A stretch of DNA of 64,000 nt. It comes from a virus (lineage: Duplodnaviria; Heunggongvirae; Uroviricota; Caudoviricetes). The stretch lies in the IMG/VR virus record IMGVR_UViG_2718218360_000008; one strand, written 5' to 3'. Position numbers: made by a program. Positions 1-6,000 of this stretch are shown here, in pieces. Within the stretch, counting starts at the first letter, position 1. Each line of letters starts with the position of its first letter.

Positions 1-3000
1 GAAGCAGGCCAGCAGGCGCTGGAAGCGTTCGCCAGCGCCTGGGACAGTCGCTACCCGCAGATAAGCCGGAGCTGGCAGGCAAACTGGACCAACCTGGCGA
101 TGTTCTTCGCTTACCCGGCAGATATCCGCAAAGTCATCTACACAACCAACGCCATCGAGTCGCTGAACAGCGTAATCCGGCATGCCATCAAAAAACGCAA
201 GGTGTTCCCGACGGATGACTCAGTGAAAAAGGTCGTGTGGCTGGCAATCCAGGCGGCTTCACAGAAATGGACGATGCCACTGCGGGACTGGCGTATGGCA
301 ATGAGCCGCTTTATTATCGAGTTCGGTGACCGCCTGGACGGTCACTTCTGAGAAAAGGCATTTACACAGAATCGTGTACAGGGTCGATTTTACTCGTTAA
401 TTAGCGAACAAACCACTCGTCAGCAGACTCCCAGGTATCTTTCAGCGTCTCCTGAACAAAAGTTTTTGCAGAATCTTTATCGGCGGTGCGAGTAACTGAA
501 AGGCCATCGTTGCTGGTGGATTTGATGATCACTTCTACATCGTCATAACGTTTACTGACACGTCGCAGCATTTCTTGTTGCAGGGCAGGAACAGAACCTT
601 TTGGCATTTTGTTGATTTTGGCTGCGGGGTATCTGTGGGGCATATATGGGACATAAAAAGGCCTCAAATAAACAGCAAAATCGAGATTAGGGATTTTTAG
701 AAAAATACAACCATCTGAAAAAACTTAGAAAACACCCAAAAACCCACAGAATAGTAAAAAACATCTATGAATTATGGATTTCAAGAGTCATTCAATCTAA
801 CTAATTGATAAATAAAAAATTAACTTTTCATCGCTTCGTTATGGGGCATGGTTGGGGCAAACTCGCTTAACTGTGTATTTAACAGCGTTACCTGCGCATT
901 ATTATTTTCTGACATCCATTTCCCGTACACCTGAAACACCATTTGCGCATCTGCATGGCCCATCTGGTTTGCAATGAATGCCGGGTTAGCTCCTGCTGTT
1001 AACGACCAGCAGGCATAAGTGTGTCTCGACTGATACGATTTGCGATGGCGGATTCCGGCACGCTTTACCGCTGCGTCCCACATCTGCCTTATTGAGTCAA
1101 CGGTAAAATGGTCGCCATAATTTTTTACTTTCGCTGACACTTCAGGTTGAAAAACAAAGGTACATTTTTGTTTCTCTGTTCTGCCGAATTCTCTGAGGTG
1201 AACATCGATGATATGCTCTTTGCTCAGTCTCGTTAGTGCCATCTGACTCCGGAGAGCGTCGATTGCGGGCTTAATAAGGTGAATCACACGATTGGTTCCC
1301 GCCTGTGTTTTTGGTACTGTAAAACGGTCTTTTGCCAGATTTCTTCTGATTATCATTCTGCCATTGCGCAAGATGGTTGCGGTTTTTCTTCATCATTTTC
1401 TTCTTCTGTTTCCTGCTTAGCAGACAGTTCGCGGTTAACTTCTTCCAGGATATCTTTTTCCGGTGTATGTCGTGCAGCAGTGAGAGTTTCCTTGCTGGGG
1501 TTCTCGTGATCAGTCTCCGTTAAGTAGGCGTTGATATACCCCTGAAGGCGTCCCGGGTAGTGATAAAACTCAGGGTGAGCGCTCCGGATAAGTGCAAAAA
1601 TAGCGGCGCGGGAATAGTCCAGAATACCCGGGGTTGCGCGAAGTGCTGCGGACCATTCTTTGAACGGACTTTCTCTTTTCAGGACGATTTCTTTTGCGCG
1701 ACGATAAACGCTGCCCGGAATTTCATAAATATTAAAATCCATCGGAAGTGTGGCTGCTGCAATCTCCACATCCAGCGTATCGAAGGTGTGTACTAAATTC
1801 GGATTGCGATCGGTTTTGTTCCCGCCACCGGCATTTGCACCGGAAGCCGTACGGGTGATACGCGAAACACGATTTCCTTTCATCCACTCTTTTGTCAGCA
1901 GACCCCGATCAGTGTAGTCAGCGTCCAGGTATGCCTCGAAAAAAGCAGTTATCAGTCCCAGGTCTGAATTACCGGGATTAGGGAAAACTTTGTCAGTGTC
2001 GCGTACCAGTTTGTGAAGGTCGCGAATCTCCAGCGGGTCGAGCAGCTTTGTTTTGTGAGAAATGGCCAGGGCAGTAACAGCCGGCAGTTCTTCCGCCCGT
2101 GCTATATGTAATGCCTGAAGTTCTTCCCGTGCAACGTGCGTTACTGGTTTTTCGCTGCCGTGTTGCGCAAGCCAGCGAATGGGCAGCTCCTGACCAGAAA
2201 CCGGCAGGAGCATATTCTCCTCAATCTCCGTCATGTCTTCGCCGTTGACGTTGGTATTGTCAGTACTGGCTGGTTTCTCCTGCACGGAGGGAGAGGGCGC
2301 GATAAATACCATTGTAATGCCATCTTCCCCGCCTTTTTCGTATCGGTTGCAGAATTCGGTATCAAACACGCCTTCAGGTGGAAGGTCATTCACAACGGGT
2401 AAATGGACGCGAACGGGTTTTTTAAAGTCGTCTTCATCATAATCGTTGTCATCCATTGCGGTAATGCAGCGGGAGATGGCAACAGATAATTTTTTTGCTG
2501 TAGTCCAGTAAAAACCACCTTTAATTCCCAGACGTTTTCTGACTTTGTCATTTTTTGCTTCGCAATATAGCGCAAATTCTTCTTTATCAGTGCTCATTGA
2601 TAAACCTCATTACAGATTTAAGGGTGAACAAATCCCTGCCATTGCTGGCATTTTTAATCCGTTGGTATGGTGTTAATATGGCTGGAGGGTTATCCAGCCG
2701 GTGTTTCGTTATTCAGGTACAGCGATACTTTTTTTACCGGGAGGCATTCACCAGAAATTTTTTGCTCGTCTCTTGCCTGGAGGCAGGATTCTTTACTGGC
2801 ATAAATTCCGGTAATCACATTCTGTGATTCACCCGTTATAAGAAAAACCGTCATCATCAGTGCAAATGCTGAAGTCATTGACGTTCTCCGAAAATACCAA
2901 GTTCAAGAAGAGCAATTCGGGAAAGTATGGAATTATCATTGAGCAGATAAGGCTCATATTTCCTCATGTTAATGGCATCTTCAGTAAACTCCCGGTTACT

Positions 3001-6000
3001 GAGCAGAACACCAATATCAAAACAACCTTCAGACGTATTAACGTTTGGTAATAACGTTTCCATTATCGCGTCCTCAACAATGAATTTTGTGATGCAGTGC
3101 CTGGTGCCTCCAGGTGACGTTAACCAGTTAACAATTAACGCCGGATACAGAGAATCCACCCATAACACTGTTTTTGGTTTTAACTGTTCCGCGTGCGCTT
3201 AGCCGCATTCACCGCATCACAAAATTCACTTTAAAAAGGGCGGCAGAGCAGCCACGGAGTAAAACTGATACCGCCAAACGTCACCAGAAAATTGATAACA
3301 GAGGGCGTTGCAGCGGGGTTGTCACTTAAGCGTATGGTCAACCTGACAACCCGGTGTCCTCAATGGGGAAGGAATAACCCCGCCATACTTACCGCCGCGC
3401 CATTTCGCGGAGTGCCACAACCGGAAGCGCACGTTCGAAGAAATCTAACGACAAGCCTTCTAAGGGAAAGAGCTTCGCCGTACGCTTTCGCGTTATGCAC
3501 TGACTTTTCAGGGAAATATCCTTTCAGTAAACTGTCAGTACCGGATTCTTATCCGTGTCCGGCGCACGACCACACGTGACAGCGTGTTGGTCTCCATTTT
3601 TAACCCCAGAACCTCAATGGAGGATAAATGCCAAACAAAAAAAGAAATCCGCTTATTGAAAAACAGATTGAATGCCTGGTAAATCAACTCAGGCAATCAG
3701 GGTTATTAAAAACTCATTCAGAGTTGAGGCTCACAGAATCAGCATTCGACGATAAATAAATAATGTCCTTTATAATGGCATTATTGATTTTAATCGTTCT
3801 GTTGGTCGCCGCGGCCCTGCTGGTGTTTCCTTATAATTACCAGTCAATCCAGAGTGGACCGTGTTCAGCGTAAATATAACTGTACACATCCAGATTATAT
3901 TTGTGGTCTGTTAAGAACAGGCCGCAAATACATGCCGAAGCTTCCAGTGCAGCGGCTCTGTTACTGAATAACCATGTAGCAACATTCCAGCGTTTTTCTG
4001 CATCCCAGTCTTTCTCAAGGCCTGATACCATGAAGAAACCGTTAGTGTTGCCATCAAATAATTCTGTTTCCAAATTTTTAAGCAATGCCTGATGGACTCT
4101 TGCCAGGTATTCCGCCGGAATTTCGCCACGAATTCTGATGAGATTGTCATAAACAAACATGTTCCCCGCATATGGCGATTTTTCTTTCTTGTTTTTTAAA
4201 CCAGCATCATGAGCAAACTGATCAATTTCTTCTTCCGTTGGTTTCGTATTGATGTTTTGCGCTGTCGTTTCTGCAATTTTATTTGCCACACTCTCTGAGT
4301 CGTGTTTATTTATAGACGCACAGAAATACAATCCGGTAAACGCATCGCGCACATTACGAGCCATATTATCAGTGTCTTTTTTCGTTACCGATTCCAATTC
4401 AAGTTCGTTCAGACGATGACGAAGTGTGTGTGCTGCAATCTCCTGGATTGAAGGAGGTAAATCTTTAAATTCCATCGTCAACCTCATCAGTCAGTGTTTC
4501 TGGCTAACCAGCGACGCGCGCCAGCTTCAGTTTTAAACGTTTTGCTTTTGGTATACGTCATCGCGGTGAACGTACCGTCCTGGTTGGGGAACACGCCACA
4601 TACCAGAGATTCGTTGTTGCCAAGATTGAGCGTATCCATGTTGACCTCATTTCCCCTTAACGCCGGGGTAGCGGAACAAAAACCTGCTGCATAGTTATTA
4701 AAGTTGAACCCTGCCGTCATGTTCTTACGCCTCGGGCTGGCTACTTAACCCCTGACCACTGCCTGGTAACTCGAAGTATTGCCCTGCATTCTGTGGGGCG
4801 GGGTGAGGGAATGAATGAAGTTTAGAAAAACGAACATTTAAGGTCAATGTTTTTTTATCAAAACATTTTAAGCAGGCAGCTGTTACGCCATCACTACGAT
4901 GGCATACAGTTAATCAAATAGATGAGGTTGGTTAAATATCTTGTTGAATTTTAAAGCATACTCCCAATATGCAAGATAGATCATCCAGCATAATTGAAGG
5001 GTAGCGAGGATTCGTGGGGACTAAAAGAATATCCGGCCCTTCTATCTCCAGTTTGCGAATGACAGGCGTTGTGGTCCCTTTGGGTAAGGCAAGGACAATA
5101 TTTCCTGGTTGTACGATTCGATCGGGATCAACAAAAACTGTTGAACCATTTGGGATGGAAACTCCACCACCAGATGTCGACATACTGTCACTCTCTAGAA
5201 CAACAGCAAAGGTATTGGCCGGGATTTCTCCGACAAGCTGCACACAAGAGGTTATTGAGGAATTTTTCATATAATCACTCCAGCTTGCTGCCTGCTGAAG
5301 TGATAGTAGCGGAACCGTTTTTATCGGCGGTAAAGATAGATCAAGCGAATCACCTGTATTTAACTCTCCTCCATTAAGAAGCCAATTTTCGTTTACTTTC
5401 AATATCTTTGCCAGTGAACTTATGTAACGCGAGGACGGCGCTCCTCCACCGTTCATCCATTGACTTACGGAGCCTTTTGATGCGCCAGTGGCATTGACAA
5501 GGTCTTTGCCTTTCAAGTTTAGCGCATGCATACGTTGGGTTATGCGTTCAGATATTGTTTGCTTGTTCATGTTTTGATTTTAAAACACAGATGGTTTTGT
5601 TTCTTGACTTTCTTTGGTTTTGATTATTAAACTTTTGGCGTTCAGTTTTATGGAGCGACTCATGAAAAAATCAGAAGTATTAGGCTATTTTGGCGGAGTT
5701 GTTAAAACAGCCGCCGCTCTAGGAACGTCAAAAACCACAGTCAGCATGTGGGGGGAAGACGTTCCGTGGAAATGGGCGTTGCTAATTCAGGCAGTCACTG
5801 CCGGGGCGCTCAAATATGAGTTACACATACCGACGGTTGTCATTCCCGATTCTGATCATAATCCGCCTTCTAACCAAGGGGGGATTCATGAAAATCAAGC
5901 ATGAACACATCCGCATGGCGATGAATGCCTGGGCGCGTCCTGATGGCGAAAAAGTTCCGGCAGCTGGAATAACCCAGGCTTATTTTGAGTTGGGTATGAC

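Follow-up and report, generated by a model that had tools for sequence, protein, structure and literature searches.

The 64,000-nucleotide (nt) stretch of the Caudoviricetes record IMGVR_UViG_2718218360_000008, referred to here as the window, carries close to its left end and on the minus strand the genes for DicF, a small RNA (sRNA), and for the cell-division inhibitor DicB. With a probability of roughly 0.9, these genes form a dicBF module within the early-left operon of a lambdoid Escherichia coli O157:H7 prophage, which would act by the mechanism described for the Qin prophage of E. coli K-12. The module is already known: it is an ordinary, described copy, the dicB gene of which is annotated in RefSeq. 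Several chromosomes of E. coli O157:H7, NZ_CP038309.1 among them, match positions 1..20000 of the window with 100% identity, and the 1.1-kb dicF-dicB region is 99.8% identical among O157, O26 and O121 strains. In O157:H7 genomes that are 99.8-100% identical at this position, RefSeq annotates a 62-amino acid (aa) 'cell division inhibition protein DicB' and, next to it, a 'DUF1482 family protein'; a dicF feature is not annotated at this locus in the RefSeq records of O157:H7. Multiple dicBF copies have been reported for the O157:H7 prophages CP-933O/M/P (PMC5069750), and four dicF copies are listed for enterohemorrhagic E. coli (EHEC), including the strains Sakai and 86-24 (reviewed in PMC7873438); the copy in the window is one of these and shows no difference of substance. 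Tritos and mEp460 are examples of deposited phage genomes that also contain the module, with both DicF and dicB annotated. Three NleG genes and a group-1 pch gene in the closest genome point to Sp11 as the possible counterpart among the Sakai prophages.

The initial annotation held that the minus strand at 3238..3290 reproduces the sRNA almost base for base, and indeed 52 of 53 bases are the same as in K-12 dicF (NC_000913 1649382..1649434), the only change being A39G. A search with the Rfam model, which had been proposed as a check, yielded a match to RF00039 at 3238..3289 that spans the full model (1-52/52) and scores 75 bits, above the gathering score of 48 bits (E 1e-14 in a scan of the 64-kb window). 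The A39G exchange is located in the inner stem of the terminator hairpin, where it converts a U-A pair into U·G. Prediction yields an unchanged hairpin, with a stability of -15.4 kcal/mol in the window versus -15.9 kcal/mol in K-12, that is followed by UUUUU. Among complete E. coli genomes, 3822 of 5426 contain a match to the 53-nt DicF, and for 492 records the best match is exactly the G39 variant. The target is conserved as well: in an O157:H7 genome, the ftsZ region from -70 to +30 shows 100% identity to that of K-12, and identity reaches at least 99% in 5388 of 5424 genomes. In K-12, the 3' region of DicF pairs with the ribosome-binding site of ftsZ, which was shown by compensatory mutations, and this regulation needs Hfq (PMC5069750). 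For the A39 and G39 variants, duplexfold of the ViennaRNA package predicts the same DicF-ftsZ structure with -38.5 kcal/mol, in which nucleotides 37-40 are unpaired and form an interior loop, and A39G is thus predicted to be neutral for the ftsZ duplex.

The dicB gene lies downstream of dicF, and the distance of 175 nt between the DicF 3' end (3238) and the ATG at 3063, which had been read exactly, is equal to that in K-12. A Shine-Dalgarno sequence, GAGGA (3075..3071), is found 8 nt 5' of this ATG. The encoded protein matches the Pfam profile DicB (PF05358) over its entire length (125.5 bits, cutoff 27; 1-62/62, E 6e-37) as well as the NCBIfam model NF049927 (114.2 bits, cutoff 100); for comparison, K-12 DicB reaches 136.8 and 132.8 bits, respectively. 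An alignment to K-12 dicB had been suggested as a way of exposing a spurious resemblance; BLASTP finds 39 identities in 62 residues (E 4e-24), and the resemblance is real. The wording that the protein closely matches DicB is appropriate for the first 35 residues, of which 30 are as in K-12 and the first 15 are the same but for K2E, whereas the match is looser in the C-terminal half, which has diverged and belongs to a second allele class. At the DNA level, identity to Qin collapses at around codon 17 of dicB, except for an island comprising codons 26-35, and DicB is therefore just 63% identical to its K-12 counterpart overall.

A search of 5.8 billion protein clusters returned 142 DicB relatives, and all named ones originate from Escherichia, Salmonella or Citrobacter. 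Alignment of 62 full-length relatives revealed two C-terminal classes, the window type ending in ...MRKYEPYLLNDNSILSRIALLELGIFGERQ and the K-12 type ending in ...KRKQERELLNKICIVSMLARLRLMPKGCAQ, and dicB is a mosaic gene because these C-terminal classes are combined variously with different middle segments. Residues M1, L5, P6, N7, N9-S11, G13, F15, G18, F26, D29-I31, R34, K35, E37, S48 and A51 are invariant in both classes, and 31 full-length family members show little or no variation at the N-terminal residues, including L5. At position 2, the glutamate found in the window represents the family majority, while the lysine of K-12 is the minority residue. For K-12 DicB, it was shown that the N-terminal segment and L5 are essential, with mutation of L5 leading to inactivation, that position 2 tolerates substitution, and that the last 8 residues are dispensable, while loss of 12-20 C-terminal residues weakens the activity (PMC4967827). 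Judged from these comparisons, the window allele keeps everything that is known to be essential. An AlphaFold2 model based on 31 sequences suggests, at moderate confidence (pLDDT, predicted local distance difference test, 69.7), a helical protein with four short helices and carries no information on partners. Furthermore, the quantitative PCR primers used for O157:H7 'dicB' match both ends of this allele, and the same study measured dicB transcripts and reported a phenotype for a dicB deletion in O157:H7 (PMC6915034).

In the longest-open-reading-frame track, dicB is represented by a 97-aa open reading frame (ORF) at 2875..3168, and it is conceivable that this frame, from GTG 3168 to the stop at 2875, is the real gene and encodes an N-terminally extended DicB. 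The frame is indeed open, and a few DicB entries of 94-109 aa with such extensions are present in databases. However, the Pfam profile covers just residues 36-97 of the 97-aa ORF and, like that of NCBIfam, starts at the internal methionine; GTG 3168 lacks a Shine-Dalgarno sequence, which is present at ATG 3063; the extension falls within the structured spacer described below; RefSeq and K-12 use the equivalent internal ATG; and fusion to the N-terminus masks the activity of K-12 DicB (PMC4967827). Likewise, the article by Cam et al. 1988, which is cited in PMC4967827, speaks in its title of DicB being translated 'from an in-phase internal start'. An extended DicB is thus hardly credible, and the correction to ATG 3063 proposed by the initial annotation is upheld.

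The third gene of the module, which follows dicB, had been described as a coupled, hydrophobic ORF of 62 aa. Its length is as stated, and its ATG overlaps the dicB stop codon as ATGA, an arrangement by which it is translationally coupled to dicB. The protein is not generally hydrophobic, since a hydrophobic stretch is confined to the first ~16 residues and the grand average of hydropathy (GRAVY) of the whole protein is 0.08; instead, it is a homolog of YdfD, with matches to Pfam DUF1482 (PF07358; 56.3 bits, cutoff 25, profile 1-57/57) and phrog_1092 (116.5 bits) and 45% identity to K-12 YdfD, the lysis protein of Qin (E 3e-20). K-12 YdfD lyses dividing cells by inhibiting IspG, an effect that is offset by DicB, and both halves of YdfD are needed (PMC8835842). 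Taken together, the identifications of DicF, DicB and the coupled small ORF as well as the corrected start codon are supported.

The position of these genes points to an early-left operon under repressor control. On the minus strand, the order is ydfA-like gene, 212-aa gene, leader, dicF, spacer, dicB, ydfD-like gene, recE-family remnant and integrase remnant (Table 1), which places the module between the repressor gene and the end of the prophage. The 212-aa gene matches neither Pfam nor NCBIfam. The repressor contains a Peptidase_S24 domain (48.5 bits) and a helix-turn-helix (HTH) region that remains below the threshold for HTH_3 (21.5 versus a cutoff of 23 bits) and is 37% identical to that of DicA; residues 2-211 match phrog_4, 'transcriptional repressor'. 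It is not a repressor of the DicA type, which has 135 aa and consists of the HTH alone, and it scores 41.4 bits on the DicA NCBIfam model, the cutoff of which is 101. The candidate promoter of the operon sits between the repressor gene and the ydfA-like gene and is abutted by the palindrome ATGTTTTGATAAAAAAACAT. The intergenic region between the repressor and cro contains related palindromes at 5569-5587 and 5617-5632, of which one covers the -10 element of a rightward promoter-like site, so that operator-like palindromes are common to the leftward and rightward promoter regions. This layout resembles a lambdoid immunity region in which left and right operators are shared, and we infer from position and pattern only that the operon is the early-left operon under control of this repressor. 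Its derepression may be linked to the SOS response, as the repressor has an autocleavage domain. This would set it apart from Qin, in which DicA is relieved by the antirepressor Rem; dicBp of K-12 is mostly off under laboratory conditions (PMC10448788). RefSeq annotates just the last 112 aa of the repressor ORF, as 'LexA family protein' (WP_001416688.1). The repressor ATG at 5570 has no Shine-Dalgarno sequence and abuts an operator-like palindrome, which is reminiscent of the leaderless lambda cI mRNA.

Table 1. Features of the dicF-dicB operon and its putative control region; positions refer to the window.
Feature	Position	Strand	Evidence and remarks
CI-like repressor, 212 aa, HTH + S24 (LexA-type) autocleavage domain	4932..5570	-	Pfam, PHROG; at the place of DicA in Qin
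Candidate early-left (dicBp-equivalent) promoter TTGACC-17-TAAACT (4847..4819) and operator-like palindrome ATGTTTTGATAAAAAAACAT (4866..4847)	4819..4866	-	Consensus scan, 9/12 matches; position
ydfA-like gene, first gene of the operon, DUF1391, 50 aa	4487..4639	-	PF07151, 102 bits; 88% identical to K-12 YdfA; RefSeq 'DUF1391 family protein'
212-aa gene at the ydfB/ydfC position	3837..4475	-	phrog_2151, 489.6 bits (unknown function); RefSeq 'hypothetical protein'
Conserved leader upstream of DicF	3291..3568	-	Part of the BLAST block shared with Qin; 3291..3417 nearly identical to K-12
DicF sRNA, 53 nt	3238..3290	-	Single-stranded 5' part and Rho-independent terminator hairpin (stem 3275..3239), T run 3237..3233
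Structured dicF-dicB spacer, 174 nt	3064..3237	-	Predicted fold
dicB, 62-aa cell-division inhibitor, window-type C-terminal allele ...MRKYEPYLLNDNSILSRIALLELGIFGERQ	2875..3063	-	Pfam, NCBIfam, BLASTP, RefSeq WP_000449175.1
ydfD-like gene, DUF1482, 62 aa	2690..2878	-	Pfam, PHROG, similarity to K-12 YdfD
Decayed distal operon end: RecE-family exonuclease remnant (1353..2597) and truncated integrase (820..1371)	820..2597	-	Pfam Exonuc_VIII, Phage_integrase

By analogy with the K-12 orthologs, derepression of this operon would block FtsZ by an RNA and a protein route (PMC5069750, PMC6832061). As long as the repressor is bound, the operon would be silent, as in K-12 Qin; once repression is lifted, a polycistronic RNA would be made. 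DicF is processed from the operon transcript in K-12 (PMC10448788), and by homology with Qin the conserved leader probably holds the RNase III and RNase E processing sites from which DicF is released. The two enzymes would excise an sRNA of 53 nt, if its own terminator sets the 3' end, or of 72 nt, if RNase III sets it by cleaving the spacer helix. Together with Hfq, DicF would then pair with the ribosome-binding region of ftsZ and block FtsZ synthesis, while transcripts that read through the terminator would allow production of DicB. In K-12, DicB binds MinC, and the complex, brought to the septal ring via ZipA, dismantles it; phage exclusion that depends on ManYZ is based on the same interaction (PMC6832061). 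The DicB encoded in the window would accordingly take MinC to the ZipA-bound septal ring, where FtsZ rings are dismantled, and the coupled YdfD-like protein is a candidate lysis factor. Kil of lambda and KilR of Rac are other division inhibitors of this kind from lambdoid phages: they are small proteins encoded in the leftward early operon under repressor control, and they prevent assembly of the FtsZ ring when induced. Kil acts on FtsZ/ZipA without MinC and is not known to have an sRNA partner.

Several observations weigh against a functional, repressor-controlled division block. The integrase and the recE-family gene have been lost from the prophage, which indicates some decay. The promoter scan found 4 sites compared to 6.2 expected in shuffled sequence, and promoter and operators are a matter of consensus matching. 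The energy of the DicF-ftsZ duplex is not distinctive, as random 280-nt windows give a mean of -42.8 kcal/mol with DicF; duplexfold can therefore not demonstrate the pairing. The C-terminal 27 residues differ strongly from those of K-12 DicB and, since C-terminal deletions weaken the K-12 protein, full activity of the window allele is not guaranteed. Finally, the YdfD homolog is just 45% identical, while YdfD needs both halves intact.

The operon could be a silent relic that is unexpressed, or whose divergent dicB and ydfD alleles are inactive, and that is kept only since the prophage was acquired recently. This would be in line with the distal recE-family and integrase genes, both of which are incomplete pseudogenes in RefSeq, with a DicB C-terminal half and a YdfD-like protein that have diverged, the latter over most of its length, from the K-12 proteins tested, and with a dicBp that is mostly off in K-12 under laboratory conditions (PMC10448788). 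However, both small ORFs are intact, with start codon, Shine-Dalgarno sequence and coupling preserved. Moreover, the window-type C-terminal allele is common and internally conserved and recombines with different N-terminal and middle segments, which argues for maintenance over decay; the near-identity of the region in O157, O26 and O121 strains and the transcripts and deletion phenotype reported for this allele in O157:H7 (PMC6915034) point in the same direction. We therefore regard a silent relic as very unlikely.

More weight has to be given to the alternative that the module is retained mainly for roles outside cell division. DicF would then be a regulator of virulence and metabolism (pchA and the locus of enterocyte effacement (LEE), stx2, xylR, pykA, manX), DicB would provide superinfection exclusion by preventing ManYZ-dependent entry of phage DNA, and the division block would be a side effect of overexpression. 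DicB was indeed shown to confer about 100-fold resistance to lambda through ManYZ (PMC6832061), and DicF also regulates xylR and pykA (PMC5069750); in EHEC, in which the copy number rose to four, it is reported to activate translation of pchA and thereby LEE virulence genes, and to regulate stx2A (reviewed in PMC7873438). The same prophage also contains a PerC-family (group-1 Pch-like) regulator gene of 104 aa at 21655..21969 (+), and genomes with at least a portion of the 1.1-kb dicF-dicB region show a median of 2 and up to 10 matching places, a multiplicity that a purely toxic function would hardly explain. A duplexfold prediction between DicF and the leader of the Pch-like gene (21435..21714) remained at background level, with 27% of random windows scoring at least as well. 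However, roles outside division are compatible with the division block, as they involve the same molecules and contacts, and the ManYZ phenotypes also need MinC (PMC6832061); the sequence does not separate the two. Retention mainly for such roles is the less probable, albeit a serious, explanation, and we favor a module that blocks FtsZ ring assembly upon derepression.

The only part of the locus for which no description was found in the literature read is the spacer between dicF and dicB. Its minimum free energy is -69.6 kcal/mol with a z-score of -5.77, and none of 200 shuffled sequences was as stable. The predicted fold is closed by a 28-bp helix, in which 3237..3210 pairs with 3099..3071 and which encloses three hairpins; its 3' arm covers the Shine-Dalgarno sequence of dicB. 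A set of 50 distinct spacers from prophage contigs of IMG/VR retains the helix with slight variation, one pair being CG, UG or UA. Of the 35 predicted pairs, just 1 shows a two-sided change, and the covariation term amounts to -0.57 kcal/mol; since the 50 sequences are too similar for power, this set supports conservation rather than proving the structure. At some IMG/VR loci, DicF and the spacer are kept and another gene replaces dicB; as the helix is maintained and the spacer persists in the absence of dicB, it may be an element that controls processing and translation. A 72-nt DicF species with a 3' end made by RNase III has been described (PMC5069750), and this published end would map 19 nt into the 5' arm, which would fit an RNase III cut in a long duplex.

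The spacer furthermore resembles the STnc100 (RF02076)/PasD sRNA family. It aligns with the Rfam model over the full length (34.7 bits, E 7.6e-05 in a search of 6.5 kb), shares the closing helix (GGUGAAU...CACC) and the hairpin CACCNGGAGGCACCNGGCAC with a compensated pair, and is likewise located in a prophage. However, the score is below the gathering score of 47 bits, so that the spacer is not assigned to STnc100, and it lies inside an operon between dicF and dicB and not in the late region. A bona fide STnc100 copy is present in the late region at 15988..16160 (+; 104.7 bits), 3' of a DUF3927 gene and 5' of a gene for a SASA/NanS-p-type esterase. It is tempting to speculate that the spacer is a conserved STnc100-related structured RNA whose helix hides the ribosome-binding site of dicB, and that an RNase III cut trims DicF to the 72-nt form and switches DicB translation on or off. 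If true, this switch would couple the protein route to RNA processing, and a second small RNA could be set free in addition; at present we consider it quite doubtful. In a weaker variant of this idea, the two C-terminal allele classes of DicB may differ in partner specificity.

The region had been called Qin-like, a label that suits some parts better than others. In the Qin (Kim) prophage of K-12, the operon ydfA-ydfB-ydfC-dicF-dicB-ydfD-ydfE-intQ is controlled by DicA/DicC. The order of ydfA, dicF, dicB, ydfD and int, the spacing of 175 nt, the Shine-Dalgarno sequence and the ATGA coupling are the same in the window. A BLAST block at 3568..2959 is 93% identical to Qin overall, with ~99% identity across leader, dicF, spacer and the adjoining part of dicB, the remnant of the integrase shares 91% identity with intQ, and the prophage in the closest complete genome ends at a truncated ydfJ, a flank which we take to be the Qin locus. 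The label thus holds for the dicF-dicB block, the ydfA homolog and the integrase remnant; it fails for the repressor, a CI-like protein of 212 aa with HTH and S24 peptidase domains in place of DicA with 135 aa, and for the gene between ydfA and dicF, as the 212-aa gene replaces ydfB/ydfC. In addition, DicB and the YdfD-like protein are just 63% and 45% identical to the Qin proteins, the ydfE position is taken by the unrelated recE-family remnant, and the prophage in the window has retained replication, lysis, head and tail genes. A 414-aa ORF was considered as a ydfE homolog and rejected, since it shows no similarity to K-12 ydfE.

Further observations concern the remainder of the prophage and of the window. 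A hok/sok type I toxin-antitoxin system is encoded at 10498..10824 (+), with a match to sok (RF01794, 113.5 bits, 10498..10672) and an overlapping coding sequence of the Hok/Gef family. Two prophage transfer RNA (tRNA) genes, annotated as Ile and Arg, are located at 14966..15215 (+), 3' of a gene encoding an HTH domain, which is the place of the tRNAs ahead of stx in Stx phages; here, stx genes are absent, and genes of the TerB family and DUF3927 follow instead. Left of the integrase remnant, the window contains a DinI-like gene (401..643) and a partial gene for an IS256-family transposase that extends up to 351. Collinearity with NZ_CP038309.1, the closest complete genome, stops at 44068, just past the tail-fiber genes. 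Beyond that point, NZ_CP038309.1 continues with three NleG (DUF1076) effector genes, a DinI-like gene and the truncated ydfJ, whereas the window runs into a second lambdoid prophage (44068..64000), of which it contains remnants of lysis genes as well as terminase and tail genes; the junction at 44068 is found in no complete genome of the collection at high identity. Segment 386..782 shares 99.7% identity with the right end that the same prophage has in NZ_CP038309.1, and this resemblance suggests tandem or recombined lambdoid prophages. Four single-base indels distinguish the window from NZ_CP038309.1 (700, 3604, 3625 and 3756), three of which lie in or beside a small hypothetical ORF on the plus strand (3628..3759) that encodes 43 aa here and 69 aa in RefSeq; one of the two sequences therefore has a frameshift in this ORF.

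DicF and DicB are textbook examples of prophage-encoded division inhibitors and their multicopy state in O157:H7 has been published, so that the value of this copy as a discovery is small. Its main use lies in annotation: dicF is unmarked in RefSeq, the repressor is called as a 112-aa fragment, and dicB is overextended by the longest-ORF track. For EHEC, this copy may be of relevance through the combination of a cleavable LexA-type repressor upstream of the operon, a distinct C-terminal allele of DicB and a pch gene within the same prophage.

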